In this document: positions 1 to 17,915 of the stretch, one piece after another
How the letters are laid out: each line of letters starts with the position of its first letter
Numbering within the stretch: position 1 is the first letter of the stretch
NCBI GenBank assembly: GCA_963799485.1
Contig: CAWCXJ010000011.1
Span: 1 to 19,185, forward strand
Direction: 5' to 3'
DNA from: an uncultured Trueperaceae bacterium
Lineage (GTDB): Bacteria > Deinococcota > Deinococci > Deinococcales > Trueperaceae
Length of the DNA: 19,185 nucleotides
Translations under genes and position numbers: made by a program
The notes under the pieces: generated by a model
What the model was told of the DNA's origin: nothing
What the model saw: the letters and a program-made list of their open reading frames with translations, nothing else
Database searches by the model: none

Positions 1-1
1 T

Positions 2-651
2 TGTGAACACTGGAACGCCCACCTGTTAGCGACCAAACTCATCGAACTGGCGATTGTCACAACGGTATCAAGCGAGACTGTTCGAACCAGGCTAAAAAAA
101 ACAAACTCAAACCTTGGTTGAAAGAGCAATGGTGTATAGCTCCAAAGCAGAGTGCTGAGTTTGTTTGTGCGATGGAAGATGTGCTTGCGGTGTATCACCG
201 ACCCCATGACCCCAAACGTCCGCTGGTATGTTTCGACGAGGGCACAAAACAGTTGACCAAAGAAATGCGTTTAGCTTTACCGACTCGACCTGGCGAGATA
301 GCTAAATACGACTATGAATACGAACGTAACGGGACGGGCAACCTGTTTATGTTTTTCGCGCCTTTAGCGGCTTGGCGGCACGTCAAAGTCACAGAAAGAC
401 GCACCATGATCGATTTTGCACGGTGTATGCGTGACTTAGTTGACATCCATTTTCCCAAAGCCGAGAAGATTATTCTGGTTATGGACAACCTCAACACCCA
501 CAAACTCGCGTCGCTTTACAAAGCTTTTGAAGCTGCTGAAGCAAGACGTATCATCGAAAAGTTAGAACTTCACCACACGCCTAAACACGGTTCCTGGCTC
601 AATATGCGGGCAGGCCCGGAAGGTGCTGTTTTGCCCAAGACGGCAGAGATT
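2..651 (+). pseudogene. IS630 transposase, 5' part (orfA tail plus orfB joined by a -1 frameshift)
   Basis: DDE motifs CFDE and MDN are present. WLNM-AEI is split by 12 extra codons and then by an IS insertion after ATT 649-651. Confidence 0.9.
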
Positions 652-1544
652 AGACCTCCGGCGAAAGTCAAGGAACTTGCAAATCGTGGTTGTAGAGGGC
701 GGCGATAAGGTTAAGCCGAAGACCGAAACGACGTCTTCTATGGCGATAGGTTTCTTTGAGAAGCCGAAAGACTTTAAGCTTGCGAATGACGTGTTCGGCA
801 AGAATACGCTCTTTGGCTAGTACGCGATTATGGGTGTGCTGCTCACAGGTAAGAACTTTGCCGCGCCAACGCTTATGCGGTGTGCGGCTGTTGGGATGGA
901 ACTTAGCGACACCTTGAAAACCGCTATCTGAGAGCAGTTCAGTGTCATCGTGTAAAAGGTGAGCGCAGCGGCTCTGCTCAAGTAGCTTGAAGTCGTGTCG
1001 GCGTCCTTTGCCGTAAGCCGTGCATAAGATACGTCGGCTGCTCTTTTCGACGAATACCTGGCTCTTTTGCGTATGTCGCTTTTTCTTACCCGAGTAGTAA
1101 GCCCGTTGTTTTTTTGGGGCGTTCAACCGGTGACTCGGCAATGTCTACGACTACCACCTCTAGGGTAGGGTCGTCTCTCAAAGCTTTACGTCCCGGTAAC
1201 GAAAATTCACCCGACTTGATGAGTGCGTCTTCGACCCGCTCTATCGTTCGCCGCACGGTACTCTCGTCTACGCTCCAGTCTTCTGACAGATGAAAGTGTG
1301 TCCTATACTCTCGCCAGAACGACAAGGTGAGAACGAGTTGGTCTTCTAAGCCCAGTGACGGCGTTCGGCCTCGTTTCTTCTTTTGCGCCTCTCTTGTTCT
1401 AAGTACTTCTAGCATCTTTCTAAACGTCGCTTGTTTGACGCCGAGTTTGCGCTTGAACTTCTCAGCTGGTAATTCCAAACTTCGTACCGTTTGCGCTCGC
1501 ATCTCTACAGTCTCGCATCTTTAAGCTACTTTCGCCGGAAGTCT
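652..1544 (-). mobile_element. IS5-family (ISL2/IS702-like) insertion sequence, apparently intact, 893 bp
   Basis: 17-bp terminal IRs: AGACCTCCGGCGAAAGT (652-668) and ACTTTCGCCGGAAGTCT (1528-1544), 16/17 match. A 3-bp ATT target duplication lies at 649-651 and 1545-1547. Confidence 0.93.
668..1502 (-). CDS. IS5/ISL2-group transposase expressed via a -1 frameshift (orfA 1086-1502, orfB to 668)
   Basis: orfA has an HTH region and VVVDIAESPVERPKK. The slippery A AAA AAC (T7 at 1109-1115 on +) leads into KQRAYYSGKKKRHTQK..DSGFQG..ERILAEHVIRKLKVF. Confidence 0.9.
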
Positions 1545-1733
1545 ATTGAACTCAGTGTGTTACAGCGGCAATGTCTCAAAGCGCGTATACCTCAGCAGCA
1601 GGCCTTGAACGACAGTCTCAATCTCTGGCAAACGGTTCGCAACACCTCCAAAGCTAAAGTGACCTGGCGCTTTACAACTGAGGACGCACGTATTAAGCTC
1701 CATAGTCTCTATCCGTCAATAGATGTTGGCTGA
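1545..1733 (+). pseudogene. IS630 transposase, 3' fragment
   Basis: IELSVLQRQCLKARIP..WRFTTEDARIKLHSLYPSI is the typical IS630 C-terminus and is contiguous with 643-651 once the IS5 is removed. Confidence 0.88.
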
Positions 1734-1851
1734 ACTACTAGACTTGAGTTTCACCTGCGTCATGCCTTTTTCTAGCAACTCAGCACATGAGATTGTCAAC
1801 AGAGCCTAGGCCCACTAGGGCTGGCCGAAGGTTGCCCGTTCTAGATGCGCT

Positions 1852-2363
1852 GATAGTCAGTCGGTCAAAGCCGGAAGCTCACATGGCAACGGTTTTGATG
1901 GAGCCAAAAGTGTCAACGGCAAGAAAAGACATCTGCTGGTAGACACGCTCGGGTTGGTGTTGTCTGTACTTGTGACCTCTGCCGACGTACCCGAACGTAA
2001 AGGTTTGTCACTGCTTCTGAATCAGGCTAGACCTCATTTGCCGAGGTTTCATCAGCTGTGGCTTGACCGGGGTTACAAAGGCGTTGCCTTCACCAACCGT
2101 GTCCTTTTGTGTTTCGGTATCGTACTCGAGATCGCTACCCGTCGTTACGAAAAAGGCTTCGGCTTACAGGCGCGCCGCTGGGTCGTGGCAAGGACTTTTG
2201 CCTGGTTGGGTAACTACCGCCGACTCAGCAAAGACTACGAAACTTTATCCGCCTCGAGCGAAGCCTTCATCTACCTCGCAAGCTGTGACCTCATCACTAA
2301 GCGCCTTGCTAGAACCAACCGCACCCCTTGGAGAAACCGCTGATCCTATTCCCAAACACCCTC
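1852..2363 (+). pseudogene. 5'-truncated IS5-family (IS1031-like) transposase with right IR
   Basis: In-frame from 1852: DSQSVK..GFDGAKSVNGKKRHLLVDTLG..LDRGY..RRWVVARTFAWLGNYRRLSKDYE, stop 2343. The right end TTCCCAAACACCCTC (to 2363) is followed by TAA. An upstream in-frame TAG lies at 1816. The catalytic E (VVERT) reads A. Confidence 0.85.
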
Positions 2364-3689
2364 TAAGCTATGTGTCACCACCGAGGCGGTTGCCTCACCT
2401 GTTTTCTCAGCCCAGCCAATCAGCCGCGCTGGACTCCAGTCGGCGTGGCGTCGGTGGGCTTTAGGCATGTGCTCGGTGAGCGTGGTGTATCTACCCTTGC
2501 TTCTCGCACCCAATAGGGCTCTGAGATGCGAGGCGATGCGCTTGCCCTGATAGAACACCTCGACGGTTGCCGAAGTGAGGCGCAGTTCTACCGATTGTTT
2601 GGCATGCTGATAGGGAACTGAGTAGTAGTGCCCTTCGACTTCAACGTGATAATCAATATTGACCTTGGCTTTCTTCCAGCTTGCCACCTCGAATCCAGTC
2701 GCTGGCAGCGGCTGCAACGCGGGTTTATCGAGGTCTTCAAAAGCACTCTGGCGGTTTCCGGGAAGCTTTTGAAAAGGCTTAGTATTCAGTTCAGTCAGCA
2801 GTTCTCGCACTGCTTCGTTGGCTTCTCGCAGGCTAAAGAAGGTGCGGTTGCGCAGCGGTGCTAAGATTTGCCTTTCGACAATCTGTACGCCTACCTCGGC
2901 TTTGGCTTTGTCTCTCGGTTTTCTAACCCTGGCGGGTACAACCGCTAAGCCATAATGTGCAGCAAATTCAGCGTAAGCAGGGTTCAGTTCGGGTTCATAG
3001 CGGCAAGCGCTTTTCACACCCGCTTTGAGGTTGGACGGCTTCGCCTCGGCGCAAAGCTGACCGGGCACGACGACTTTAGGGACGCCACCGAAAAACTCCA
3101 GGGCGCGGCGGTGCGATAACAGCCAGTCTTCGCTGCTTTGACTTTGCGTGACTTCGGCGTAGGTGTAGTTGCTTGCACCGAGCACGGCGACGAAGACCTG
3201 CGCCTCTTTCATCTCGCCGCTGGTAGGGTCGGTAATGGATAAGGTGACCCCGGCGTAATCGACGAATAGCTTTGCGCCAGCAATATGGAATTGGCGCATG
3301 GTAACGCTTTGTTTACCTAGCCAAGCTCGGTAGCGGATAGTAAAGGTGGAATACTCGTACCCCGTAGGATGTTGGGCTTTGTATTCCTGCCACAGCAAGA
3401 GCAGGGTGACGCCTTTACGTTGCTTTTCCTTGTGGACGTATTCCCAATCGGGTTCGGGACGCGCCGCTGCGCCTTTGACAGCGAACAATCTCGCCTCCAG
3501 CGCTGCGTCATTCCACTCTTCATTCAGCGGCCACGACAGCCCCGCTGCTTCGGCGCGGCGCAAGTAGTTACTCACGCTACCTTTGCTGAGGTTGCAGCTT
3601 TGGGCAATCTGCCGCTCGCTCAGCTCGCAGGCGTATCTCAGCCTTAGTATCTCTCGGACCTTCCTCATAGACGCTCGCTTTCTCGACAT
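2364..3689 (-). pseudogene. istA: IS21-family transposase IstA, 3'-truncated, second catalytic Asp replaced by a 30-bp insertion; istB absent
   Basis: N-terminal HTH, FVDYAG, VVVP[GQLCAEAKPS]NLK, PRDKAKAE, DYHVEVEGHYYSVP. The frame runs into the IS5 right end at 2363. Tandem TGGTCAA(A)TT end repeats at ~3741-3772 are cut off by IS1595. Confidence 0.9.
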
Positions 3690-3777
3690 GCCTTATCTTG
3701 CAAGCCATGTCTTTGGAGTGTCTCGCGTCGCTACGCTGAGGTGGTCAAATTCGTTAAAACGCTGGTCAATTTATGTA

Positions 3778-4796
3778 GGCTCTTAATGGATTCCAAGGAG
3801 GTAATGTAAAGCCGTTGCAACACGGGCAGAATCACCGTTAGACTCGACGAATGCTGAACATCCAGGTCTTGGTGGATGACGCCAAGTGTTTCGAGGAAGT
3901 GCGCAAGCTACGTTGGCCTGGTGGGGTGAAGTGCCCAAGCTGCGGGTCAGAGAGGATCATCAAGCGAGGCTTTCACAGCACCCAGCCGCATCGCCAACGC
4001 TACGTTTGTCAGGGAAGGTGCTGTGCTCGGTTCGACGATCTTACCGATACCGTCTTTGAAGGCCATCATCAGCCGCTGAAGGTATGGGTGCTGTGCCTGT
4101 ATTTCATGGGTCTGAATCTCTCCAATCGGCAGATTGCCAAAGAGCTAGATTTGAACGAGGATGATGTGCAGCAGATGACCAGCCAGCTTCGTGAGGGCGT
4201 GGTGGCGAAAAAAAGCCTGTCGAGCTATTAGGAACCGTAGAGTGCGATGAGGTGTATATCGTTGCGGGTCACAAGGGACAAGCTCAGGCGGTCAAGAACA
4301 AGGAGCGTCAGGGACGAAGGCGCAGACTCAAAGGAAGCCGCGGAAGAGGCACGCTCGAGAAGGAGAAGCCTCCTGTGCTAGGGATGCTGCAACGCAACGG
4401 TGAGGTAGTGATCAAGATGCTTGCCAACGTAAAGCAGAAGACTATCGCGCCATTCATCAAAAGCTTCATTTCCAGGGGCAGCCTTATCTACACTGACGAG
4501 TACTGCATCTATGACCGCTTGGAGCAGTGGGGATACGAGCACCAAGCCGTCAACCACTCTGCCGGTGAGTATGCCCGCAAGATGGCGATGGCTTTCATGA
4601 GGTGCATGTCAACAGCATTGAGGGCTTCTGGTCGCTACTGCGCTCTTGGCTTCGCCCCCATCGCGGCATCTCGCAAGAAAAGTTGCCACTCTATTTGGGC
4701 TTCTTCGAGTTCGTCCACAACGTTAGGAGCCGGGGTAGGGCACTATTACCGTCCCTCATTGAGGTTCTGGTAGCTCCTTGAAACGCAGGAAGAGCC
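3778..4796 (+). mobile_element. IS1595-family insertion sequence
   Basis: Imperfect 23-bp IRs: GGCTCTTAATGGATTCCAAGGAG (3778-3800) and CTCCTTGAAACGCAGGAAGAGCC (4774-4796), 18/23 match. No target duplication is visible. Confidence 0.88.
3851..4781 (+). pseudogene. IS1595 transposase (Zn ribbon, HTH, DDE) with a programmed -1 frameshift and an extra inactivating frameshift
   Basis: CPSC..C..C and an HTH are present. A7G (4208-4215) shifts into VECDEVY..YTDE. At 4579-4580 the frame breaks (YAR-aa-DGDGFHEVHVNSIEGFWSLLRSWLRPHRG), with the stop at 4779-4781. Confidence 0.85.
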
Positions 4797-5065
4797 AAGC
4801 CGTTATGCTTCATCTGAGTTCTCCTTTGTTTGCCTACGCACTAAACATTCTTCAGGGAGAACTCCTTTTTGCAAAATTGTCGTGTATTTAGCACAGCATC
4901 TCTAAAAACAACCTACCCTCACGCACCGAGTCGGCGCGTCACCGCCGGAAAATGTTCTGAAGAGCATAAGCCGCATCACCCGAGCTTATCCGCTCAGGAT
5001 ATGGCTCGAGCTGCAGTTTTAACTGCTTTTTGTGCAGCCTCACAGCCCGCAAAACACCGCCTGAA

Positions 5066-5105
5066 TGGTAGAATCGTGTGTTTAGAGCGCACAGTCGCTT
5101 GGAGG
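5066..5105 (+). promoter_or_regulatory. gyrA promoter: extended -10, 17-bp palindrome and RBS
   Basis: TGgTAGAAT 5066-5074, GTGTGTTTAGAGCGCAC 5076-5092 and GGAGG 5101-5105. Confidence 0.6.
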
Positions 5106-5110
5106 TCTTT

Positions 5111-7594
<2,484 letters not shown>

Positions 7595-7612
7595 CCGGTT
7601 TAGTGACGCTAA

Positions 7613-7659
7613 TGCGCGGACACCCTGTTGCGCGGACGCCTGCACAGGGTGTCCGCGCA
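7613..7659. repeat. Perfect 16-bp inverted repeat after gyrA (REP-like element or terminator)
   Basis: TGCGCGGACACCCTGT (7613-7628) and ACAGGGTGTCCGCGCA (7644-7659) enclose a 15-nt loop. Confidence 0.75.
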
Positions 7660-7892
7660 GTTTCATGGTATGTCAGGTAAAACCTTGCGCGGCGCGGCTG
7701 CGTAATTTTATACTTTACGGATACTTTTATCGCTGCTTTAGACCGGCAGCCCGTTTGGAAACCGCTCCGCTTTACCTTATGGTGCGGTTCTAAGGTCGTT
7801 TTTCCGTTGGCGCGTTGCTGCTAACTTGCGTTGGCGGTTCGGCGCGAGGCGCGTGAGACATTGCACGAAGCGACACGACAGGAGTTGACGAG

Positions 7893-8207
7893 ATGCTTAT
7901 CGGCGAAGCGGTACTTAAATCACCGGCGTTTAGTCCACGTCTTATGCTGCTCGTTCAGGACTTGAGAGCTGCCGGGTATACGGTGTGGCTCGAGGGTCTG
8001 CGCCTTCGTTTCGACCTAGACGCCGGAGCCGCGCCCGCCGACGTTGGAGAACTTATGAAACGTTACCGTGACGTAATCGAGTGGTTTCCGGGGCCGCGCG
8101 CCGAGTTTTCCGAGACCTCACCTCCGCGCCCACGGGTGCTCCAGCACAAAAAACGGTTGCGCGGCGCAAAAAACAGCGTAAAACTTTCACGACCTCCCAA
8201 CCCCTGA
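7893..8207 (+). CDS. Hypothetical protein (104 aa)
   Basis: AGGAG lies 8 nt before the ATG and the ORF fills the gap before the convergent SDR. No recognisable motif. Confidence 0.55.
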   Translation: MLIGEAVLKSPAFSPRLMLLVQDLRAAGYTVWLEGLRLRFDLDAGAAPADVGELMKRYRDVIEWFPGPRAEFSETSPPRPRVLQHKKRLRGAKNSVKLSRPPNP

Positions 8208-8221
8208 TCAACTGAAAATCT

Positions 8222-8932
8222 CTAAAGGTTCCAGCCGCCGGCGACCTCGAGCGTCACCCCCGTAACATAGGCGGCTTCAGCCGAAACGAGATACAAAACC
8301 GCGCTGCTTACCTCCGTCACTTTTCCGTTACGGCCTAGCGGAACGGCGCTGGCAGGTTGCGCGACGCTGTTTTCCATCACGCCGGGGCTGACGACGTTGA
8401 CAGTGATCTCGTCTTTCGCGTAGGTTTTGGCGAGCGCTTTGCTGTACAGGATCACGCCGGTTTTGGCAATGCTGTAGGGGGCGATACCGGGCCGGGCTTT
8501 AAGCAGTTCGGCCCCGGCAAACCCCAGGTTGATAATCCGGCCCCCCCCGGCGTTTTGCATCAGCGGCAACGCGGCGCGGCACAGATAAAAGGTGCAGTGC
8601 AGGTTCGAGTCGAACATCTCGTGCCAGGTTTCGACGCTCAGTTCGGCGAGCGGGCCCTGGTGGTAGTTGCCGACGTTGTTGACGAGCACATCAGGGCCGC
8701 CCATCTTGGCGTGAACGTTTTGAATGAGTCCTTCGGCTTCGGTCGCTTTGGTTACGTCGGCCTGAAAGGTATGGGCTTGAACCCCTGTAGTGCGGGCGCG
8801 GTCGGCGGTCTTTTCGGCTTCTTCGGCCGAAAAGCGGTAGTGAACCGCAACGTCGTAGCCGGCCCCGGCGAGTGCCAGCAAAATAGCTTGCCCGATGCCC
8901 TTGGCCGCGCCCGTAACGAGTGCTACAGGCAC
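8222..8932 (-). CDS. tmpR: SDR oxidoreductase, TmpR-like bifunctional dihydropteridine/dihydrofolate reductase
   Basis: VTGAAKGIG, VAVHY, LVNNVG, YSIAK (YxxxK) and C-terminal LEVAGGWNL, resembling Thermus TmpR from recall. GTG start at 8932 follows GGAGG. Confidence 0.75.
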   Translation of the reverse strand: MPVALVTGAAKGIGQAILLALAGAGYDVAVHYRFSAEEAEKTADRARTTGVQAHTFQADVTKATEAEGLIQNVHAKMGGPDVLVNNVGNYHQGPLAELSVETWHEMFDSNLHCTFYLCRAALPLMQNAGGGRIINLGFAGAELLKARPGIAPYSIAKTGVILYSKALAKTYAKDEITVNVVSPGVMENSVAQPASAVPLGRNGKVTEVSSAVLYLVSAEAAYVTGVTLEVAGGWNL

Positions 8933-9366
8933 CTGAGGTGTTCCTCCGGGGGCAAGTTGGCAAGGTAGAACTCGAGTAAAACGCGCGTCGGCGTGTTGAG
9001 GTCGAAGCTGAGCGCAGCTTCGGGCGTTACCCAAACGTGCGCCTGCGCTTCGCCGTTAAGCCTGACCTGTACGCCTCTTGTAAGGGCGATAAAATTGTGC
9101 AGGATAAAGTGCGCGTCCCTGTAAAACTCCGGGCTCTCTACCGCTTCTTGCACCGGCCCCTGATAGATATGGGTGAGAGTGAGTCCGGTCTCCTCGAGTA
9201 CCTCGCGTTTCAGGGCGTCCCTCAGGGTTTCGCCGTACTCGAGCTTGCCGCCCGGTACCCCCCACAAGTTGCGCCATTTGTGCGTTTGAATGAGCAAGAC
9301 GCGCCCGTCGGAACCCTGAATCAGCGCGCCGACCGTCGTCAAAGGGCATATTGAAGAGCGTTCCAT
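8923..9366 (-). CDS. NUDIX hydrolase (NudI-like)
   Basis: Nudix box GGKLEYGETLRDALKREVLEETGL. It overlaps the SDR start. TATGCT -10 lies 6 nt before the ATG. Confidence 0.9.
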   Translation of the reverse strand: MERSSICPLTTVGALIQGSDGRVLLIQTHKWRNLWGVPGGKLEYGETLRDALKREVLEETGLTLTHIYQGPVQEAVESPEFYRDAHFILHNFIALTRGVQVRLNGEAQAHVWVTPEAALSFDLNTPTRVLLEFYLANLPPEEHLRCL

Positions 9367-9466
9367 CCGTCCAGCATACGTGAGCCGACAGCGGACTTGG
9401 ACGCGCGGCTAGGGTTCTGGAGCGTTTTACGGTAAACTCTGCTTTAACTCGGCTAAGGAGGTGGTC

Positions 9467-10303
9467 TTGCACGCCTATACCGGCTCGTTTCGAACAGCTC
9501 AGGGCCCGACTCTGTTTACCCGTACCTATTTGCCGGACGGCACGGCGCGCGCAGCGGTTATCGTCGCGCACGGTTACGCCGAGCATTCGGGGCGTTACGA
9601 GGTGCTCGCCCGGAGACTGGTCGCTGAAGGGTACGCGGTCTACGCGCTCGACTACCGGGGGCATGGGCAGAGCGGCGGCAAAAGAGCGAGTGTGCAGGTG
9701 TTTCGTGAATATATCGACGACCTCATCCGCTTTATCGACCGGGTACGTGAGACCCGGCCCCACCCACCGCGCTTTTTGTTCGGTCACAGTATGGGCGGGC
9801 TTGTAGCCTTGCAGCTGGTGCTCGAGCACCCTGAAAAGGTCGAAGGTGTCGCCGTTACGGGGGCGCTGCTGGAAAACGCCGTGCAGGTACCGCGCCCGCT
9901 CGAGCAGGCTGCAGGAGTCGTCAGCCGTCTCGCGCCCGATTTGCCCGTGCAAGAACTCCGTGCTGAAGACGTCTCCCGCGACCCCGCCGTCGTCCAGGCG
10001 TATAAAGACGACCCGCTTATCTATCACGGCAAAGTCCGGGCGCGTCTAGGCTACGAACTCCTGCGCGCCGGGCCGTATGTGCTGGGCCGGGCGCACAACA
10101 TCGAACTGCCGATCTTGCTCCAGCACGGGACGGCAGACAAACTTGCGGCGGTCGCCGGCGTCGAGGCGCTCTTTAAGGCGCTGGGCTCGGCGGACAAAAC
10201 CCTCGAGCTTTACGACGGCGCGTATCACGAAATCTTAAACGATTACGGCAAAGAAGAGGTCATAGACGACCTCGTGGCTTGGTTTAACGCCCGCGTTGGT
10301 TGA
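9467..10303 (+). CDS. Alpha/beta hydrolase, lysophospholipase/monoglyceride lipase family
   Basis: HGYAEHSGRY, DYRGHGQS, GHSMG, HGTAD and YHEILND. AAGGAGGT RBS precedes TTG 9467 (alternative GTG 9461). Confidence 0.92.
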   Translation: MHAYTGSFRTAQGPTLFTRTYLPDGTARAAVIVAHGYAEHSGRYEVLARRLVAEGYAVYALDYRGHGQSGGKRASVQVFREYIDDLIRFIDRVRETRPHPPRFLFGHSMGGLVALQLVLEHPEKVEGVAVTGALLENAVQVPRPLEQAAGVVSRLAPDLPVQELRAEDVSRDPAVVQAYKDDPLIYHGKVRARLGYELLRAGPYVLGRAHNIELPILLQHGTADKLAAVAGVEALFKALGSADKTLELYDGAYHEILNDYGKEEVIDDLVAWFNARVG

Positions 10304-10310
10304 GCCGGAT

Positions 10311-11159
10311 TCAGGGCAATCCGGCAAAAAACCGCATCACTGCCGCCCCGGTTTCGTCGGGCCAGTTGTGCGGGTAGTAGCGCCCGCCGTAGGTGTAGTC
10401 TTGCGTGTGCGGACACCACAGCACCGGACTTTGAACCCTTTGCACCCCGGGCGCGCCGTAACGTTCGCAGTTCAGAGTGCGCGGTTCGACCGGTGTGGGC
10501 GGCCCGGTTAGTCCGTTCTGCGCCAAAAACTGGTCGCGAGCCGCCACCCCCAGTTCAAACGGGACGAGCCTGTCGTTCGGGTTGTGCAAAACCATCGCCG
10601 CCACCTGACCCTCACACGTCCCCGCTGCCGGCCCACCGCCGAGGCTGGCGACCGCCCGCAGTACCCCCGCCCGGTAACACCCGAGCGCGTTGACAAACGA
10701 ACCGCCTAAAGAGTGACCGACCGCGAAAATACGCTCGGTGTCGAGACAAATATCGGTGCTGAGCCGGTTTACGAGCGCGTCAAAGAGCGCAAAATCGCGC
10801 AGGGCGTCCGGGGCGTCGCCGGGGTTCCACCAGCCGAAGGTGCCGTCTTGTTGGGTCAGCGCGACCGGGTAGATAAACACAGTCGGGCCGAGCGTCTCTG
10901 AAGCGTGGGGCTCGAGGTCGTAGTAGCGCTGCACCTCAGCTGCCGGACTGGTACGCCCGTGAAACGCCAATACGAGCGCGTGCGGCGCGTCGGCGTCGTA
11001 AGGCTCGGGGAGGCTGACGATAAAGTCTCGTGCTTGCCCGCCAACGCGGATGGTTTGCAGCCCCGGTTGCAGGGAAGAGTCCGGGGCGTCGCAGCCACCC
11101 GAAGGCGCAGCGAGTGCGCCGCTTAACCAAAAAAAGAAGACCCAAAGGTAACGCTTCAT
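10311..11159 (-). CDS. Secreted alpha/beta hydrolase esterase (LpqC/PHB-depolymerase/feruloyl esterase-like)
   Basis: Signal peptide MKRYLWVFFFWLSGALA, LVLAFHG, GHSLG, HNPNDRLVP and PHNWP. Confidence 0.85.
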   Translation of the reverse strand: MKRYLWVFFFWLSGALAAPSGGCDAPDSSLQPGLQTIRVGGQARDFIVSLPEPYDADAPHALVLAFHGRTSPAAEVQRYYDLEPHASETLGPTVFIYPVALTQQDGTFGWWNPGDAPDALRDFALFDALVNRLSTDICLDTERIFAVGHSLGGSFVNALGCYRAGVLRAVASLGGGPAAGTCEGQVAAMVLHNPNDRLVPFELGVAARDQFLAQNGLTGPPTPVEPRTLNCERYGAPGVQRVQSPVLWCPHTQDYTYGGRYYPHNWPDETGAAVMRFFAGLP

Positions 11160-11193
11160 CAAGCCAGTCTAGCCTCAGCTGCCTCTCCAAAAC

Positions 11194-11221
11194 TTGGCAG
11201 AGCGCCAAAAGTCTTTACAAT
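11194..11221 (+). promoter_or_regulatory. sigma70-type promoter for a leaderless transcript
   Basis: TTGGCA (11194-11199), 16 bp, TACAAT (11216-11221), with ATG 6 nt downstream. Confidence 0.6.
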
Positions 11222-11227
11222 AGAGCT

Positions 11228-11491
11228 ATGTCTAAAACCACCAAGCAACGCAAAGTCGATGCCAAGGCGCTCGCCGAAGCGCGGCGTCTGACTCCCGGCA
11301 AGGTGCTCCGGCTTGTCCTCAAAAGTTTGGGTTTTGCTGTTATCGTCTCGCTGCTCGTGGCCCTGCTGAGCGCGCTCGGTATTCCGGTGCTCGAGAGTTT
11401 CTGGTTGCAGCTCGTGGTGATGCTCGTCGTTTATATTGCCGCCTATCCTTTTTTGATGCGCGAGTTTCGTCCCAAACGTAACGGGCGCTGA
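11228..11491 (+). CDS. Small two-TM membrane protein (87 aa)
   Basis: Basic N-terminus and two hydrophobic helices (LGFAVIVSLLVALLSALGI; FWLQLVVMLVVYIAAYPFL). It ends 9 bp before the kinase. Confidence 0.8.
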   Translation: MSKTTKQRKVDAKALAEARRLTPGKVLRLVLKSLGFAVIVSLLVALLSALGIPVLESFWLQLVVMLVVYIAAYPFLMREFRPKRNGR

Positions 11492-11500
11492 GTTTATCGC

Positions 11501-13315
11501 GTGGCGCTGACCCGGCGTGCTCCTCACCCGCCTGTGAAGTCGGAACCGCAAGCAGGCACGCTCCCCCGGAGTTTGTACCAGCAGCTGCGCTGGGCGCGGC
11601 TCTGGTTGCCGGTCGCTATCGTCGGGGTCGTGTTGCTGCAACAGCTTACGGTCGGCTGGGGCTGGGTCAACGTCTTGTTTTACGGCACGTTGGGCCCGGC
11701 GGTAACGTTTCTGACACTCAACTGGATCGCCTCGGAGGTGCGCCGCCGCGAACAGGCGCAGGGTGAACTGCGCGGGCTTTACGACGCGCTCAGTCGTTCG
11801 CACGCGCTCCTGGGACAGATTCAGCGTGTCACCGAGCGGTTTGCGCTCTCGCCCGACCTCAACGCGGTGCTGGTCGTTGCCGCCGAAGGGCTCACGAACG
11901 TGACCGGAGCTGAGGGTACGGCAATTCTTTTGGGTGAACGCGGACTGAGAATCAGCCATACGCACGGACTAGATGTAGACGCGGAGCGCGTCGTTGCCGC
12001 GCGTCACGACGCGCTCCGCCGGGGCGAAAAATTGACCGGGCAGGTAGGGGAGCGCTGGGCGCTGTCGTTTTCGCTCTACTGGGGGGGGAAGCTCGAGGGC
12101 AGCGTCCACAGTTTTTTTACCGCACCCCCCGAACCCGAAGCGCGTGAGAGCTTTGCGATTTTGGCCAACGAGTTTTCCGCCGCCGCCGAAGCGAGCCGGA
12201 GCCGCACGAAAGACCTGCTTACGCTGTTCGAGGCCGACCGCAGCATCCGCGCTGAAGGGAACCTGGAGCGGCTGTTAGAAAAACTCCTTACCCAGATGAT
12301 GCAGCGCGCCGACGCCTGTATCGGCGGCGTCTATTTGGCCGACGAAGACGGGCTCCTACAACTCCGCGCTGCCCGCGGCGTCGGTGAACCTGCCCTGCAC
12401 CTCGGAGAAAACTTCGTCGGTCAGGCTGCTACCGAACCGCAGGTCGTTCACCGTTTGAGCGCCGCCGAGCAGCAGGGGCCGATTCTCGTCTCGGCGCAGA
12501 GTACGGTGACTCTCCCGCTCCTGAGCGAAGAAGGGCTTTTAGGTGTCGTCGTGCTGGGGCATCCGGAAGCTGCCCACTTTAGCGAAACGAACCTGCCGTT
12601 TCTAAACCTGCTCGCCGGTCAGGTCACTCTGGCGGTTCGGAACGCCCGCGCCTACTTGCAATCCGAAGAGCTGGCTATCGCCGAAGAGCGCGCCCGCATC
12701 GCCCGTGAAATCCACGACGGGGTAGCGCAGGCGCTCGCTTTCAGCGCGCTTAAACTCGATTTGGTGGCGCGGCTCATTACGGGCGCTGGGTCGCAAACCG
12801 GGCCTCAAACCGACAAAGCGACCGCCGAACTGCGTACCGCCCAAGCGACTATCCGTGAGAGTATCCGCGAGGTGCGACGCTCGATTTTTGCGCTGAGACC
12901 GATTGACTTGGAGCGTCACGGGTTCGTCGAGACCATCCGGCGCTACTGTGCGGATTTTGAAGAGCAAAACGACCTCAGCGTCGGGTTGACCGTAAACGGC
13001 GCGCCGCAACTTAGTGCCAAATCCGAAGCGGTACTCTTTCGCATCTTTCAAGAGTCGATGAACAACATCGCCAAACACGCACACGCCCGTTACGTCTTCG
13101 TCACCGTCGGGCAGACGCGCGGGTCATGCGGCTACGTCGAAGTGCGCGATGATGGTCGGGGTTTCGACCCGACGATGGTCTCGGACAGGGTGACGAGTGC
13201 CGGCGGTCTCGGGCTCAAGCAGATGCGCGAACGGGTGCAGGCTCGCGGCGGACGGTTTGAAGCAGTGTCGGAACCTGCGGGCGGAACGAGGGTTTATGCG
13301 TCGGTACCGGAGTAG
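11501..13315 (+). CDS. Membrane GAF-domain sensor histidine kinase (HisKA_3, NarX/LiaS-like)
   Basis: Two TM helices, two GAF-like regions, EERARIAREIHDGVAQ, FQESMNNIAKHA, DDGRGF and GLGLKQMRER. Confidence 0.93.
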   Translation: MALTRRAPHPPVKSEPQAGTLPRSLYQQLRWARLWLPVAIVGVVLLQQLTVGWGWVNVLFYGTLGPAVTFLTLNWIASEVRRREQAQGELRGLYDALSRSHALLGQIQRVTERFALSPDLNAVLVVAAEGLTNVTGAEGTAILLGERGLRISHTHGLDVDAERVVAARHDALRRGEKLTGQVGERWALSFSLYWGGKLEGSVHSFFTAPPEPEARESFAILANEFSAAAEASRSRTKDLLTLFEADRSIRAEGNLERLLEKLLTQMMQRADACIGGVYLADEDGLLQLRAARGVGEPALHLGENFVGQAATEPQVVHRLSAAEQQGPILVSAQSTVTLPLLSEEGLLGVVVLGHPEAAHFSETNLPFLNLLAGQVTLAVRNARAYLQSEELAIAEERARIAREIHDGVAQALAFSALKLDLVARLITGAGSQTGPQTDKATAELRTAQATIRESIREVRRSIFALRPIDLERHGFVETIRRYCADFEEQNDLSVGLTVNGAPQLSAKSEAVLFRIFQESMNNIAKHAHARYVFVTVGQTRGSCGYVEVRDDGRGFDPTMVSDRVTSAGGLGLKQMRERVQARGGRFEAVSEPAGGTRVYASVPE

Positions 13316-13322
13316 ATGACAA

Positions 13323-13767
13323 GTGTTTAGTGCCGAGCTCGCCGGGTTTTTTATAAGGTTTACGCCGACAAAATACGTAGACGAGCCGCTTGCGTTTGCT
13401 GTCATGATTGCCAACTGTCAAGAAGGCTTTTTTCTGGTATAAACCGCTACCGGGGCTGGAAATACCCGGTGGACTTATCGATCCGGGTGAGACCGCGCAA
13501 GAGGCTGCTGTTTGTGAACTCTTTGAAGAAACAGGTCAGACAGCCGCGCGCGAATGTTTGTTGGGAAGGCTCGAGGTCGGCGAAAAATCGGGGACAAAGC
13601 GTACAGGGCTGCTTTACGGCCGTGAAGTGATCACCTTACGTCCATTTACAGCTAATGAGGAAATCGTTGAACTGGCGTTGTGGTGCGGTCAAAAAACTAT
13701 AGGCGTTGACTACACAAGTCAGGTTAGCGAGATAGACCGCCGCCTGGTGGCGCTCTACTCACGCTGA
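13323..13767 (+). pseudogene. Degenerate NUDIX hydrolase
   Basis: Frame from GTG 13323 gives ..PLAFAVMIANCQEGFFLV*. A second frame gives NRYRGW and a third gives EIPGGLIDPGETAQEAAVCELFEETG (conserved R replaced by C). Frameshifts lie around 13440-13460. Confidence 0.7.
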
Positions 13768-13959
13768 AGTCGAGACGGCTTGGTGGTAGGTTCGTTCTCG
13801 CGCTGCTAAAACGGCTAAAAGGCGGCAGACTGAATACTCCCGACGCCTCTCGCGCAGGACGTTCAACTTCAGCCGATAACGCCCACCGATTTTCCTCACC
13901 CTGCCTAGGCGCCGGGTACGCTCGAGGTCGATTCGGGGACGATGAAGCCACAAGTAACC

Positions 13960-14329: not shown

Positions 14330-14406
14330 GCACCAGTAGCTCAGCCGGATAGAGCAGCCGCCTTCTAAGCGGTAGGCCGAGGGTTCGAGTCCTTCCTGGT
14401 GCGCCA
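14330..14406 (+). tRNA. tRNA-Arg(TCT); probable attB of the adjacent element
   Basis: Acceptor GCACCAG/CTGGTGC, anticodon arm GCCGC-CT TCT AA-GCGGT, GTTCGAGTC and CCA. Confidence 0.97.
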
Positions 14407-14491: not shown

Positions 14492-15635
14492 CTACGGATT
14501 TTGTAAGAGTGCGCTTAAAGGCTTAACGGCGGTCTGCTTTTGCTTCTTGGTCAGGTGGTTGTACTGACGCCGGGTGAAGTTCGGGTCTTTATGCCCTACG
14601 CGGTTGCTGATAACCTGCAAATCGGTTCCGGCACGGTAGAGCATACTGACGTGGGTATGCCGGAGGTCGTGAAAGCGGATGTGGGGCACGCCTGCCTTAT
14701 CCATGAGGCGATACCAGATGCGGTCAAAGTTGCGCTGCGCTAGCGGCTTGCCCTCACGGGTCGTAAACATCAGGTCGTCAAACGGCGGCGGCGCTCCCCA
14801 AGTGTCACAGGCTAGCTGCTCGGTAGCCTGCTGTAAGCGGTGCTGCTCGAGTAGCTCCAAGGTCTCAGCGTCAACTAAGACATGCCGGGTTCCCGATTCA
14901 GTCTTAGGGGTGCTGATATTTTGACCTTTAACTGACACAAGGTTCTGGCAGATGTGAAGCGTGTCGTCTCCTAAGTCTTGCCAGCGCAACCCTAGCAGCT
15001 CACCGTGCCTTAGCCCGGTCGTCAGGGTGAGGTAGAAAGCAGCGTAGAGGCGGTGGTCTTTGGCGGCGGCTAGAAAGCGGTTAATCTCCGGTGCCGTCCA
15101 CTCTTTATAGACGGTTTGGGGCACCTTGTAAGGTTTGGTCGGCGTGACCGGGTTTCGGGGGATGAGGGCGTCGTGCACGGCCTGCCTGAAGGCGGTGTTC
15201 AGCACCTTACGCGCTTTGTTGGCGGCGTCGGGACTTACGGCATCTCTGACGGCAGCCAGGAGCGCCCGGACGTTGGCGGTCGTGACCCGCTCGAGCTTCA
15301 CGTGCCCTAAGTGCGGGATGATGTACAGGTCGATAATCTGCCGGTAGCCTGCGAGGGTTTTGGGTTTGACCTCATCCCCTTTAAGGTCTGTCCACTGCCC
15401 TAAGTAATCTGATAATTTAAGCGTGCTAGAGGTTTGGATGCCTGAAGCAAGGGACGTTTTAATCGCGTTCAGTTTCTTCAACGCTTCAGCCTGCGTCTTG
15501 CCTGACACCCACCTGAAGCGCTGTGTGCCGTCCTCTTTATAGCCGACCGTGACTTTGCCCCGCCAAGTCCCGTTCGGCAGTTCAAATACAAAGCCCTCAC
15601 CCTTCTCTTTTCGTGTTTTTACGGCGTCTTGGCAT
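14492..15635 (-). CDS. int: Tyrosine integrase (ICEBs1/Tn916-like), ~380 aa, with a +1 frameshift after codon 6
   Basis: Intact R-K-H-x-x-R-H-Y (GLRHGE, TPKT, HDLRH, VGH, RQY). The arm-binding N-terminus RKEKGEG..W..VTVG..SGKTQAEA lies upstream of 15508. ATG 15635 has an RBS but is out of frame by one base (T5 at 15616-15620). Confidence 0.9.
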
Positions 15636-15637
15636 TT

Positions 15638-15883
15638 TTAACCCTCTCTCTCCGCTGAAAGCTTGCTCAGGTCTGTGCCTTTGGGTACGGCTACCAGCTC
15701 GAGCCCTAGTTCGTCGAGCACCTTTTGCCAGCCCTCGTTGATCTTGCCCGACCTACCCGCTAGCAGCCGTGCCAAGTTCGTTTCGTGCATGTCAGTACGT
15801 CTAGCTAGCTCACGCTGAGTAAGCTTACGTGCTTTCATGCGGTCTTTGACGGTCTCCCGAATGTTGTCATTCATGCTGTCCAT
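15638..15883 (-). CDS. XRE-family HTH transcriptional regulator (81 aa)
   Basis: KLTQRELARRTDMHETNLARLLAG..WQKVLDELGLELVAVPK. ATG 15883 lies 7 nt after the -10 TAAGCT. Confidence 0.88.
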   Translation of the reverse strand: MDSMNDNIRETVKDRMKARKLTQRELARRTDMHETNLARLLAGRSGKINEGWQKVLDELGLELVAVPKGTDLSKLSAEREG

Positions 15884-15890
15884 ATTACGT

Positions 15891-15932
15891 AGCTTAGCAG
15901 GTATTGACAAGCTTGTCAATTTATGTCATACT
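15891..15932. promoter_or_regulatory. Overlapping divergent promoters with a central 18-bp palindromic operator
   Basis: ATTGACAAGCTTGTCAAT (15903-15920). Plus strand: TTGACA, 17 bp, CATACT (15927-15932). Minus strand: TTGACA, 17 bp, TAAGCT (15896-15891). Both have a TGn extension. Confidence 0.85.
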
Positions 15933-15999
15933 GTAGATGTCTAAGGGCTACGGCCTAGTAACTGAAGCCCTTAGAAATCCCGAAGTAGTTAGGATCAAG

Positions 16000-16209
16000 A
16001 TGAATCATATCACCCTCAACAAACGCCCCGGCGAATGCTACAAACCTCACGCCTTCAAGGTCTATGACGTAACCCGTAACGGTGAGATCGTCGGCACCGT
16101 TGCCCAAGACCTCTGGAACAAATGGGAAGTGGTAGACGCAAACTTTAACCGCGTCAGCCACCACACCACCATCAAAGCAGCGGTACGTGTCGCGTCGAGG
16201 GCTCTGTGA
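16000..16209 (+). CDS. Small hypothetical protein (69 aa)
   Basis: AGGA precedes ATG 16000 downstream of the promoter (alternative start 15937). The sequence is beta-rich and phage-like (KVYDVTRNGEIVGTV..WEVVD). Confidence 0.65.
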   Translation: MNHITLNKRPGECYKPHAFKVYDVTRNGEIVGTVAQDLWNKWEVVDANFNRVSHHTTIKAAVRVASRAL

Positions 16210-16349
16210 TGAGCCCCTTCTATTTCGTAGATATTGAGATGTACAACGACTGTAAAGAGGACTTGCAGACTCTGTACGCAGAACTGCCTGAAGAGGACAA
16301 GACAGACGATGAACCACCTCCGACCATTCAAGACGAGTTACCCGAATGA
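16209..16349 (+). CDS. Very acidic micro-protein (46 aa), missed by the ORF track
   Basis: TGATG coupling and a GAGG RBS. MSPFYFVDIEMYNDCKEDLQTLYAELPEEDKTDDEPPPTIQDELPE has 15 D/E versus 2 K. Confidence 0.6.
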   Translation: MSPFYFVDIEMYNDCKEDLQTLYAELPEEDKTDDEPPPTIQDELPE

Positions 16350-16577
16350 GATACCTTGGGAGAGGCGGCGTGATGCCGCTTCTCTCCCAACTACGACAGC
16401 CGCTAAGAATGGCTTAGAGGATGCCCATATCATCCTCTGTGGCGTGGTTGCAGCCCACTCTGAGGCTAAGCGAGCGTTCGGAGCGCTCCACTCAGGGAAG
16501 GATTATGTGCCATCAGTTGATCTCTCGGACTAGAACGAGGCGGGCAATCTGCAAAAGGTCGTATCGTTCAGCATCGC

Positions 16578-17915
16578 TTAGGCGGCTTTTACTAAAGTAG
16601 CTTGAAAGTAGACGCTCGAGGTCGGGCGTCTGGCCTCCCGGCACCGTAAACACGGTACTCCTTTGAACTCACCAGTATCGAAACGGCGGCGCAGCTCGAG
16701 TATTTCGGGCGGGTTCGTGTTCGCTTGCGTTGCACCGGTGACAGCGATGACAGGTAAGGGAGTTACGCTGTCCTGCACAGCGTTTGCACCTGTCATCGGA
16801 TCTGTTACTGCTTTTGTAAACCAATGACAGGTGTCACCGGGGTTGTCATCAGTCACCAACTTGTCATCGGAGGGTGGTGATGATTCTTTTTGCGTGCCAG
16901 AGGCCCTTTTTTGTCTACTGTCATCGCTGGCACTGGTGTTACTCATACGCACGTATAAGCCGCGTTCGGGTAACAGCACGAGGTTCTCCTGGAGCAGTTT
17001 CGACAGTAGGTTACGAACACTGCCGCGTGGGAGCCCCGTCCCTTCAGCTATCTGTTTAGGTGAGGCGGGTACTGAGTGCTGTGCGAGGTAGGCAAGGATG
17101 GTCTGACGCTCTTTTGTCAAGGCGTACACGTCTGCGTTACCCAAAAGTGACCACAGCCCTTTTGACGGGTCAAACTGAAGCGCGTGTGAGTTCTCTTCTA
17201 TATCGCGCCCGGTCACGTGCAAAACCGCGTCAGCTTCGCCGCGTTGACGGGTGAGGACAAGCACCGCGTCCGCTACGCCGGTTAAACCCGTCGAGCCCGA
17301 AACGGTGTCGAGAAAGTCCTCAGCTAGAGCTTTACGGACGTGATGCACCAACACGAGCGCTACGCTGTGCTTGGTTGCCAGTTCCTGAAGCTGAGCGCCT
17401 AGAATCGCGTCTTGTGAGTAGAGGTCAGCGCCCGGTTTCGTCGGCGGTCTCACCCTTGCGAGTGTATCGATCACCACTAGGCGACAGGCCGGGTGAGCGG
17501 TTAGCCAGGTGTCGAGCTGCTCGAGCCCCCCTTCGTGAAGTCGGGACATCGCGCCGCTCGTGGCAAGGTGCAACCCTGCCGGGACGGAATCCGTTATGAC
17601 CTCTAAACGACTCTGCAACCTGCGCTGATTATCCTCAAGCCCCAAGTAGAGGGCTTCACCTTTGTCTACCTGAATCTTGCCGAGGGCGCAGCCTCCGGTT
17701 GCTACGGCTACGGCGGTCGTGAGCATGAGCCAGCTCTTACCCAACTTCGGGCGGCTTGCGAGTAGGGTCAGACCTTCGACAAAGAAACCGCTGACGACTG
17801 CCGGGGGTTCGGGTAGGTTGAGCTGCATAAGCGCCGCGCCGGTGATGGTCGCGAGCCCGGAATGTCCGGGCTCATCATCAATGGGATAGGCGGGCAATGT
17901 ATTCGGCTTAGGCAT
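16578..17915 (-). CDS. AAA_25/RepA-type helicase with C-terminal winged helix (replication protein)
   Basis: Walker A ASRPKLGKS, YLGLED, Walker B LVVIDT, LVHHVRK, SGSTGLTGVAD, and wHTH SPKQIAEGTGLPRGSVRNLLSKL. Confidence 0.88.
   Translation of the reverse strand: MPKPNTLPAYPIDDEPGHSGLATITGAALMQLNLPEPPAVVSGFFVEGLTLLASRPKLGKSWLMLTTAVAVATGGCALGKIQVDKGEALYLGLEDNQRRLQSRLEVITDSVPAGLHLATSGAMSRLHEGGLEQLDTWLTAHPACRLVVIDTLARVRPPTKPGADLYSQDAILGAQLQELATKHSVALVLVHHVRKALAEDFLDTVSGSTGLTGVADAVLVLTRQRGEADAVLHVTGRDIEENSHALQFDPSKGLWSLLGNADVYALTKERQTILAYLAQHSVPASPKQIAEGTGLPRGSVRNLLSKLLQENLVLLPERGLYVRMSNTSASDDSRQKRASGTQKESSPPSDDKLVTDDNPGDTCHWFTKAVTDPMTGANAVQDSVTPLPVIAVTGATQANTNPPEILELRRRFDTGEFKGVPCLRCREARRPTSSVYFQATLVKAA
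16737..16925. repeat. TGTCAYC iteron-like repeats (putative origin) within the rep 3' region
   Basis: Forward copies at 16791, 16832, 16844, 16851 (AGTCACC), 16862 and 16919. Inverted copies at 16737, 16746 and 16823 (AATGACA). Confidence 0.7.

Follow-up and report, generated by a model that had tools for sequence, protein, structure and literature searches.

We analysed a 19,185-bp stretch of DNA from an uncultured Trueperaceae bacterium (the entire contig CAWCXJ010000011.1, hereafter the window), with a focus on a mini-operon of three small genes at positions 16000 to 16533 of the forward strand. Judged by its sequence, this operon is a pseudogenised relic of the rightward early operon of an element family, and it led us to a family of small mobile elements in Trueperaceae that has so far gone undescribed. 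Comparison of related loci established that the three genes, referred to below as the triad, are conserved, translationally coupled as far as their start/stop overlaps tell, and under purifying selection. The same comparison established that, in the loci compared, they are the constant backbone of these elements and not one of the accessory cassettes that vary between them. The best explanation overall, which we put forward tentatively, is that the window holds the relic of a backbone early operon that probably acted on DNA replication, recombination or host nucleases. The operon and its control region comprise the following features:

15904..15932, forward strand: operon promoter with the presumed operator (consensus scan and perfect palindrome at 15904-15919)
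15940..15975, forward strand: stem-loop of 10 bp at the predicted 5' end of the transcript (inverted repeat I4; folds in 24 of 24 loci)
15976..15999, forward strand: rest of the leader, with the Shine-Dalgarno (SD) sequence AGGA at 15991-15994
16000..16209, forward strand: gene 1, 69 amino acids (aa), intact (AGGA at 15991-15994; 65 relatives; ratio of non-synonymous to synonymous substitution rates, dN/dS, 0.32)
16209..16373, forward strand: gene 2, cut to 46 aa by a TGA at 16347-16349; the old frame runs to the TGA at 16371-16373
16373..16533, forward strand: gene 3 remnant with a 1-nucleotide (nt) frame break near 16400; similarity to relatives ends at 16472-16480
15638..15883, reverse strand: Xre/Cro-C1-type helix-turn-helix (HTH) repressor (HTH_31, HTH_26, HTH_3; phrog_3 transcriptional repressor, 1.9e-7)
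15882..15910, reverse strand: leftward promoter-like site for the repressor gene (TTGTCA, 17-nt spacer, TAATAT, 9 of 12 matches; consensus match only)

A conserved triad of small genes in Trueperaceae elements

Relatives of the operon were compared from 7 loci of two Truepera metagenome-assembled genomes (MAGs), 17 metagenome loci (one assembly and one other contig) and a second copy in the window's own genome (C7); all named relatives are Truepera MAGs. Across these loci the three genes keep their order and are joined by conserved TGATG-type start/stop overlaps. Median pairwise dN/dS values were 0.32 for gene 1 (24 loci), 0.13 for gene 2 (17 loci) and 0.155 for gene 3 (19 loci). Gene 1 had 65 relatives in a collection of 5.8 billion proteins, 63 of them 67-70 aa long. 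The three listed relatives of gene 2 measure 54, 57 and 63 aa and end in ..PEWDTWGEAA or ..PDYDFWGEAA, while intact relatives of gene 3 read as a single frame of 107-118 aa (MAPLLSQLxxAKNGLEDAQI...) whose start overlaps the stop of the acidic gene 2. The gene-3 family reaches much further, with 185 representative clusters worldwide at an expect value (E) of 0.001 or better; among 364 Deinococcota genomes it was found in 72, belonging to 18 of 60 genera, and gene 1 was found in 4. The window, where two of the three frames are broken, could also be read as a non-coding leader or spacer with untranslated chance frames. For the family this is refuted, with next to no chance left to it, by the 65, 3 and 185 database relatives of genes 1, 2 and 3, the dN/dS values of 0.13-0.32, the conserved start/stop overlaps and SD sites, and the confident predicted folds.

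The elements share one plan: a tRNA, an integrase (in the integrated forms) and a leftward repressor, then the rightward promoter-operator, leader and triad, followed by a variable slot and by replication genes on the minus strand. Around the constant triad the other modules are swapped. The regulator is an Xre protein, a 77-83-aa HTH_26 protein or an HTH protein with a ParE-like toxin, and the replication protein is an AAA_25 ATPase, a Toprim_3 plus AAA_30 protein (987-1065 aa) or an NrS-1-type primase-polymerase; two AAA_25 proteins that were compared share 27% identity only. One 21,040-bp contig of a Truepera MAG consists of two 10,471-bp units (L003 and L004) that differ at 57 of 9,646 compared positions (99.4% identical). 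These units have no integrase and carry HTH_17 (excisionase-family) genes and a primase-helicase, with everything but the triad running leftward from the same control region; they probably represent a circular element, plasmid-like or episomal, of which the assembly joined two copies.

The gene upstream of gene 3 in other Trueperaceae genera encodes a 98-105-aa protein that shows homology to gene 2 in its C-terminal half, the shared motif being D[VI]E[VM]x[AS]DREE[ED]LQxL[FY]xELA ... W..AA. The acidic module and gene 3 are therefore a constant pair. In L018 (1451-1651) and L022 (7043-7267) the place of the acidic middle gene is taken by a Cys-rich protein of 66-74 aa ending in ..VAA, and such Cys-rich proteins gave weak DnaJ_CXXCXGXG and anti-TRAP matches only. 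Small Cys-rich (CxxC-type) proteins also lie near gene-3 relatives, upstream or downstream, in L036, L037, L042 and L061.

A further common trait concerns the C-termini. An Ala-Ala end was present in all 17 acidic proteins, in 16 of 19 Truepera gene-3 proteins and in 23 of 118 members of the wider gene-3 family, compared with 53 of 2345 long frames of the genome. These tails resemble ssrA-like ClpXP signals.

Decay of the operon in the window

In the window gene 1 is intact. Its TGA (16207-16209) overlaps the ATG of gene 2 (16209-16211) in a TGATG, and the 46-aa open reading frame (ORF) that starts there (16209-16349) holds 15 D/E and 2 K, counted on the sequence. Past the TGA at 16347-16349 the frame continues as DTLGEAA and closes in a second TGATG (16371-16375). 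The premature TGA sits at the W/Y position of the relatives, so gene 2 was formerly 54 aa long; further changes affect residues that are otherwise conserved (R15C, A27P and an L-to-P change in DELPP). Gene 3 is split, one frame reading MPLLSQLRQPLRMA up to a stop codon and the next frame reading AKNGLEDAHIILCGVVAAHSEAKRAFG and on to a final D and a stop at 16533. BLASTN matches to 19 loci all end at 16472-16480 and none goes beyond, which means that about two thirds of the length of gene 3 has been lost in addition to the frame break. What is left of it covers about 35 residues from the start of helix 1, and a search of the window with the family profile misses it. With the nonsense mutation in gene 2, the broken and truncated gene 3, a deleted cargo slot and a frame break in the integrase, this copy can no longer perform the full function.

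The lesions were also found outside this assembly. Short metagenome contigs from four runs of four studies, of low depth and covering part of the stretch only (15937-16508), match it at 99% or more. Two of these contigs share the TGA, the frame break and the breakpoint of the window and add a C-to-T change at 16394 (CGA to TGA) in the gene-3 remnant. Identical lesions in independent contigs argue that they are not assembly slips of this genome. The sequencing runs searched gave matches in DNA contigs, and no RNA run was among the matches. Damage to the operon recurs in relatives: L014 (2453-3169) and L016 (near 3628) carry an IS6/IS240-type transposase in the acidic gene or gene 3. The second copy in the same genome (L002, G000:C7:469080-469760), located beside an HTH and ParE-like pair, has intact genes 1 and 2, and its gene 3 diverges over the last ~17 residues and is then followed by an IS1 InsA gene.

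Much of this architecture had been anticipated by the original prediction, which was made from the window alone. Its near-consensus promoter and its 69-aa ORF coupled by TGATG to an acidic 46-aa ORF are present, as are the HTH gene and the palindrome that its proposed HTH control through an operator would need. Its suggestions that gene 2 had once been 54 aa long and that a third, frameshifted gene extended to 16533 agree with the relatives, of 54-63 aa with W or Y at the window's TGA in the first case and of a single frame in the second. The partial decay and the satellite-like Deinococcota element that it proposed correspond to the lesions above and to an integrative island whose named relatives are all from Truepera. 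The search for homologues and their neighbourhoods that it recommended is what revealed the conserved triad.

Presumed operator, promoters and leader hairpin

The rightward promoter combines TTGACA (15904-15909), a 17-nt spacer and a TG-preceded CATACT (15927-15932), with 10 of 12 matches to the consensus. The scan found two promoter-like sites in 15500-16900, compared with 0.9 +/- 0.9 in shuffled sequences. Across 24 loci the -35 box is TTGACA in 21, TTGACG in 2 and TTGTAT in 1, and the -10 boxes are TG-extended. A perfect 16-bp palindrome, TTGACAAGCTTGTCAA at 15904-15919, covers the -35 box and is the presumed operator; it lies between the operon promoter and the promoter-like site of the repressor gene, which stand back to back. 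The repressor is transcribed divergently from the operon, and the same type of regulator is found with the same operator in L007, L012 and L017. This arrangement supports a mini-operon placed for control by the divergent HTH repressor, which would act through the operator over the -35 box.

A stem-loop with a stem of 9-10 bp begins a few bases past the -10 box in all 24 loci, according to per-sequence folds. The stem is perfect over at least 7 bp in 20 loci, and its arms comprise at least ten different sequences. A covariance model built from 20 loci and searched in 417 kb gave exactly one match per locus, including four Truepera loci outside the model set, and it also matched three distinct loci of two other Trueperaceae genera (five rows: L030 and L069 overlap, L031 and L060 overlap, plus L045). 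In an alignment fitted to this model, and thus favouring structure, 87.6% of the cells pair compared with 72.2% in shuffles (none of 500 as high). Eight of the ten stem pairs showed changes on both sides, and slid controls were at most 61% paired. RNAalifold recovered four pairs only from a plain MAFFT alignment because the arms are out of register there; the per-sequence folds and the covariance-model alignment were used instead. The hairpin is also found upstream of operons without gene 1 (L060, L069 and L061) and is therefore a feature of the operon, not of gene 1 as such. In about 12 of the 24 leaders the minimum-energy fold contains a second small hairpin that pairs the SD sequence with an upstream AAUCC(C), this pairing being weak in the window's leader. 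A search of 15500-17000 against Rfam gave no match, so that this is a compact, covarying operon leader absent from that database.

Two other ideas about this region were dropped or weakened. Binding of the gene-1 protein to the inverted repeat of the leader lost ground with the persistence of the hairpin in elements without gene 1. A 90-aa frame starting at the ATG at 15937 was rejected as a gene, its ATG being inside the leader hairpin and not conserved, and 63 of the 65 relatives being of the shorter length. Separately, a G+C-rich 6-bp hairpin spans the stop-start overlap of genes 1 and 2 (16199-16216), with a terminator-like score that was reached at one site compared with 1.2 by chance.

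The AlphaFold2 model of gene 1 (predicted local distance difference test, pLDDT, 93.1) has five strands and a C-terminal helix. Foldseek found nothing for it in the PDB at E <= 0.001, and its scores in the ESM Atlas were 0.87 or less. In BFVD it resembled only uncharacterised small phage proteins (best E 9.9e-3, template modelling score, TM, 0.72). The sequence profiles that were compared with PDB chains reached at best E 0.14. One weak match in viral contigs (34% identity) was discounted.

These data bear on the possibility that the operon is a developmental switch. Gene 1 would then encode a protein comparable to Cro or Cox, with the task of turning off the repressor promoter, of directing excision, or of both, and genes 2 and 3 would supply an antirepressor or short-lived regulators. 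In the P2/186-type switch the first rightward gene is Cox or Apl, and the layout of the elements, with integrase and repressor leftward and a short early operon rightward from an adjacent promoter overlapped by the operator, copies it. The operator palindrome between the two promoters and the Ala-Ala tails, suggestive of unstable regulators, would fit, and the window holds no other evident excisionase candidate. However, the promoters are back to back by the consensus scan and not face to face as in P2/186, and the gene-1 protein shows neither the HTH that a Cro or Cox fold would have nor any HTH family match. Its subtypes do not follow the type of repressor or operator, the same Xre operator being accompanied by different gene-1 subfamilies in the window, L007, L012 and L017. 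Moreover, the triad is kept in the 10.5-kb integrase-less unit, which carries HTH_17 excisionase-family genes of its own, and related elements of other genera have retained the promoter, the leader and gene 3 but not gene 1. We consider such a switch function unlikely.

Gene 3 and the possible role of the triad

For gene 3, AlphaFold2 predicted one long antiparallel helical hairpin (pLDDT 96.9), and the intact relatives, of ~110 aa, fit two long antiparallel helices with a conserved tip. This tip is near-invariant across the family, G-x-x-G-x-N-x-x-x-R-x-A (G47, G50, N52, R56 and A58). Nine of 118 members of the wider family matched PHROG 31827 at E <= 0.001 (best 2.6e-6), a group without assigned function for which the Truepera gene-3 proteins stay below threshold (L002, E 0.2). 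The same 118 members had no credible Pfam match, a cluster look-up of 10 family members returned no informative names, and Foldseek found nothing in the PDB at E <= 0.001. The nearest ESM Atlas clusters are unnamed and mostly viral (85% and 74% Viruses). Gene 3 thus represents a wide uncharacterised mobile-element family with a confident predicted fold and an invariant hairpin tip.

The genomic context of the family suggests where such a protein might act. In two prophage-like loci of the Thermaceae family (L066 and L068, f5), gene 3 is flanked by a DnaC/IstB-like loader on one side and by a SWIM protein and a Rad52-type annealase on the other. In Deinococcus-like loci the place upstream of it is taken by a zinc-ribbon stretch or a different small protein. 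A role in replication or recombination is proposed because gene 3 is constant across elements with unrelated replication proteins, because it occurs in replication/recombination modules of prophage-like loci, because it is coupled to an acidic partner and because the proteins bear signs of being short-lived. We infer, with rather more hesitation than for the overall explanation, that the triad is used when the induced cycle begins, either for replication or recombination or to protect element DNA from host nucleases.

The course of events could be as follows. The repressor would leave the palindrome over the -35 box and the strong promoter would fire. The hairpin at the 5' end would protect the mRNA, and the stretch pairing with the SD sequence would tune translation of gene 1. 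Three small proteins would be made in a fixed ratio, two of them probably short-lived owing to their Ala-Ala C-termini. As the induced cycle starts, the helical hairpin (110 aa) and its acidic partner would then act on replication, recombination or host nucleases, and the replicating DNA of the element would be favoured or protected without a direct block of CRISPR or restriction enzymes.

A more specific version starts from the acidic protein, in which DDELPPIIQDELPEW resembles DEEFPPEEDLPF of the tail of the host single-stranded DNA-binding protein (SSB), a short, low-complexity likeness only. The protein might be a decoy of the SSB C-terminal tail that, together with gene 3, captures or blocks host proteins docking on SSB, such as RecJ-type nucleases, helicases or primosome parts. 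We regard this as a long shot. If it were true, the fixed core of defence-carrying Deinococcota elements would turn out to be a takeover or counter-nuclease module of a new class. A complex prediction for gene 3 with the acidic protein scored 0.00, which speaks neither for nor against an interaction, and the acidic protein had a pLDDT below 50 in at least one run.

Several observations weigh against a role in replication, recombination or nuclease control. No triad protein has a characterised relative, and every functional step is therefore inferred. The position in an early operon, the small size and the acidity suit anti-defence or regulatory roles equally well. The placement of gene 3 in a replication/recombination module was found in the two related Thermaceae-family loci only. 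A lead from the ESM Atlas to UvsY was weak (score 0.87, the Pfam family being present on 14% of one cluster), and the fold of gene 3 is generic: in the VIA wide search it matched hairpins up to Z 11.1, with 101 chains at Z >= 8 and UvsY (Z 9.0) at rank 38. The fold matches of gene 1 in the same search were likewise generic, at most Z 5.3. Unlike real SSB tails, the SSB-like motif does not end in a free C-terminal aromatic residue, and the homologous module in L060 and L069 does not contain the motif. Finally, all six traced single mismatches in the leader stem are A.C on the plus strand, and overall there were 12 A.C and 1 G.U, a bias that would not be expected for a plus-strand mRNA hairpin. 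As A.C on the plus strand corresponds to G.U on the minus strand, the bias hints that the hairpin may have its role on the opposite strand, as RNA or as single-stranded DNA.

Counter-defence as an alternative

The original prediction had proposed that the operon is a counter-defence or helper-interference cassette. On the counter-defence view the acidic protein, alone or with its neighbours, would mimic DNA or otherwise block host restriction, CRISPR or a nuclease as the element enters or awakens. The general features agree with this, as small, coupled and strongly promoted proteins stand beside an HTH repressor, and the acidic protein, with 15 D/E in 46 aa, is highly conserved (dN/dS 0.13). 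The nearest gene-3 clusters in the ESM Atlas are mostly viral. In phage lambda the nuclease and restriction inhibitors gam and ral lie in the early operon beside recombination genes, a pattern that the gene-3 context in L066 and L068 fits as well. Small acidic proteins made from a strong promoter, with an HTH regulator on a promoter palindrome, are likewise characteristic of anti-CRISPR (Acr)/aca operons, Ocr and ArdA.

However, searches in Pfam, PHROG, NCBIfam and PADLOC, which covered the anti-restriction and anti-CRISPR families of these libraries, gave no match for the triad proteins, and no homology to Acr/aca, Ocr or ArdA was found. The regulator is the divergent immunity repressor of the element and not a downstream aca gene. 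Ocr has about 116 aa and ArdA about 165 aa, and the acidic protein, at 54 aa, is far shorter. Known Acr and anti-restriction loci are typically variable accessory genes, unlike this cassette, which behaves as invariant backbone. Its middle gene can be replaced by the Cys-rich protein, as in L018 and L022, which also speaks against this role. Gene 3, whose relatives occur in replication/recombination modules, is damaged in both copies of this genome. The host genome (3.66 Mb, 99.99% complete by marker genes) had no Cas1 match and no CRISPR-like array in a 20-mer repeat scan, host restriction-modification (R-M) being outside this survey; an Acr would therefore be without a target in this genome, and the comparison for self-targeting spacers suggested by the original prediction had no spacers to work with. 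In view of these results, the proposed counter-defence function did not find support and we judge it improbable.

A defence hotspot behind the triad

In the relatives, 1-6 kb of cargo separate gene 3 from the replication gene, a slot that is missing in the window. PADLOC matches were found directly behind gene 3 in 11 of 14 loci and cover at least six system types: R-M of types I, II, IIG and III, a cyclase with a 2TM effector of the cyclic oligonucleotide-based antiphage signalling system (CBASS), an E2-like protein, AriA/Gabija-like ATPases and phage defence candidates (PDC). The three slots without a PADLOC match are L004:6743-7981, L009:6773-9666 and L022:7539-10363; they contain a DUF4238 protein (L004) and several unknowns. 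Their genes occupy the site of known defence in 11 other loci and are therefore candidate new defence genes. The slot of the relatives has the properties of a defence hotspot, being small, of high turnover and located between conserved anchor genes. The conserved triad could thus serve as an anchor for mining defence hotspots in Deinococcota, with the PADLOC-negative slots as candidate new systems.

A similar hotspot is known from P4-like satellites, where, according to Rousset et al. 2022 (PMC9122126), the psu-int interval of 1-5 kb holds anti-phage systems of high turnover between conserved anchor genes. As far as that part describes them, P4-like satellites are also small integrative elements with an integrase, a primase/helicase-type replication gene and a short operon of small proteins followed by a defence slot (PMC9122126). 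The Trueperaceae elements belong to another phylum and show no sequence or convincing fold relation to P4 (Psu, 3rx6: probability 0.44, TM 0.36). Their slot lies between gene 3 and the replication genes and not beside the integrase, and no helper phage, cos site or capsid-size function is known for them.

The likeness raises the question of whether the triad could be a helper-phage exploitation operon of a true satellite, which would redirect the capsid, packaging or late transcription of a helper as P4 sid-delta-psu or cpm/ppi of Staphylococcus aureus pathogenicity islands (SaPI) do. The size of the element (10.5-kb unit), an integrase and a primase/helicase together with no structural genes by Pfam/PHROGs in the island part of the window, and a Cys-rich middle-gene variant that recalls the Ogr/Delta zinc-finger activators would agree with this role. 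The defence hotspot directly behind the last gene of the operon, which resembles the psu-int hotspot as reported in the available part of PMC9122126, would do so too. However, the elements have no known helper phage, a packaging signal was not identified, and the gene-3 relatives stand in prophage-like replication modules and not beside morphogenesis genes. In addition, IMG/VR contained no related locus with gene 1 or a Truepera-type gene 3, a result that falls short of showing them to be missing from virions, and three members of the gene-3 family, searched by tblastn in 50,697 isolate phage genomes, gave no match. A helper-directed function accordingly appears very unlikely.

Other satellites offer a comparable picture. 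In the available parts of their descriptions, phage-inducible chromosomal islands (PICI) and SaPI, phage-inducible chromosomal minimalist islands (PICMI) and virion-encapsidated integrative mobile elements (VEIME) share with the Trueperaceae elements a tRNA-site integrase, a divergent repressor switch, a replication module, a size of ~10 kb, defence cargo and the lack of visible structural genes (PMC10085698, PMC10803314, PMC9618062). They differ, as far as these sources go, in that none of alpA, terS, cpm, ppi and fis was found here and that one relative looks plasmid-like and is without integrase. The build and the hotspot logic are thus those of known satellites; what sets the Trueperaceae elements apart is their proteins, their leader, their phylum and perhaps a plasmid-like form. 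A literature search returned no paper naming both 'Deinococcota' and 'phage satellite' and nothing relevant on Truepera islands. Knowledge of the function of the triad would add to the understanding of how the cycle of satellites or integrative plasmids begins in bacteria other than the well-studied Proteobacteria and Bacillota.

Neighbouring genes and borders of the element

The island around the operon includes three further features:

14330..14406, forward strand: tRNA-Arg (TCT), likely integration site and left border (ARAGORN)
14492..15635, reverse strand: tyrosine integrase with an apparent 1-nt frame break near codon 12 (Phage_integrase 1.1e-25, phrog_1 5e-70)
16578..17915, reverse strand: AAA_25 (RepA/DnaB-like) ATPase with a winged HTH, presumed replication protein (AAA_25 1.2e-24, HTH_IclR 2.2e-7)

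With its tRNA-site integrase, repressor switch and own replication gene, the island has the build of a satellite. Pfam and PHROG scans of its ORFs found no virion structural families and none of the satellite markers psu/sid/delta, alpA, terS, cpm, ppi and fis. The same tRNA, 97% identical, lies to the left of the related element in L011. A second attachment-site copy (the 3' part of the tRNA) was found neither in the window nor in the genome, and the right end of the element was not found in the window, which is the whole contig.

The integrase relatives are 380-383 aa long and begin with MPRRKSTRRGRGEG. In the window the ATG at 15635 reads MPRRRKNTKREG up to a stop codon, and the integrase frame is open but startless until a GTG at 15508. 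The break (15509-15637) falls in an A-rich run beyond the cover of the metagenome contigs and may be a sequencing slip.

On the other side, the AAA_25 gene converges on the operon, with 45 nt between the end of the gene-3 remnant at 16533 and position 16578. The G+C content is up to 0.65 in positions 1-13900 of the window and 0.51-0.54 over the operon. The AAA_25 gene contains, in its 3' end (16719-16952), iteron-like TGTCATC(G) repeats together with an imperfect inverted repeat of 35 nt (77% complementary) whose arms are 164 nt apart; these repeats are a candidate replication origin of the element.

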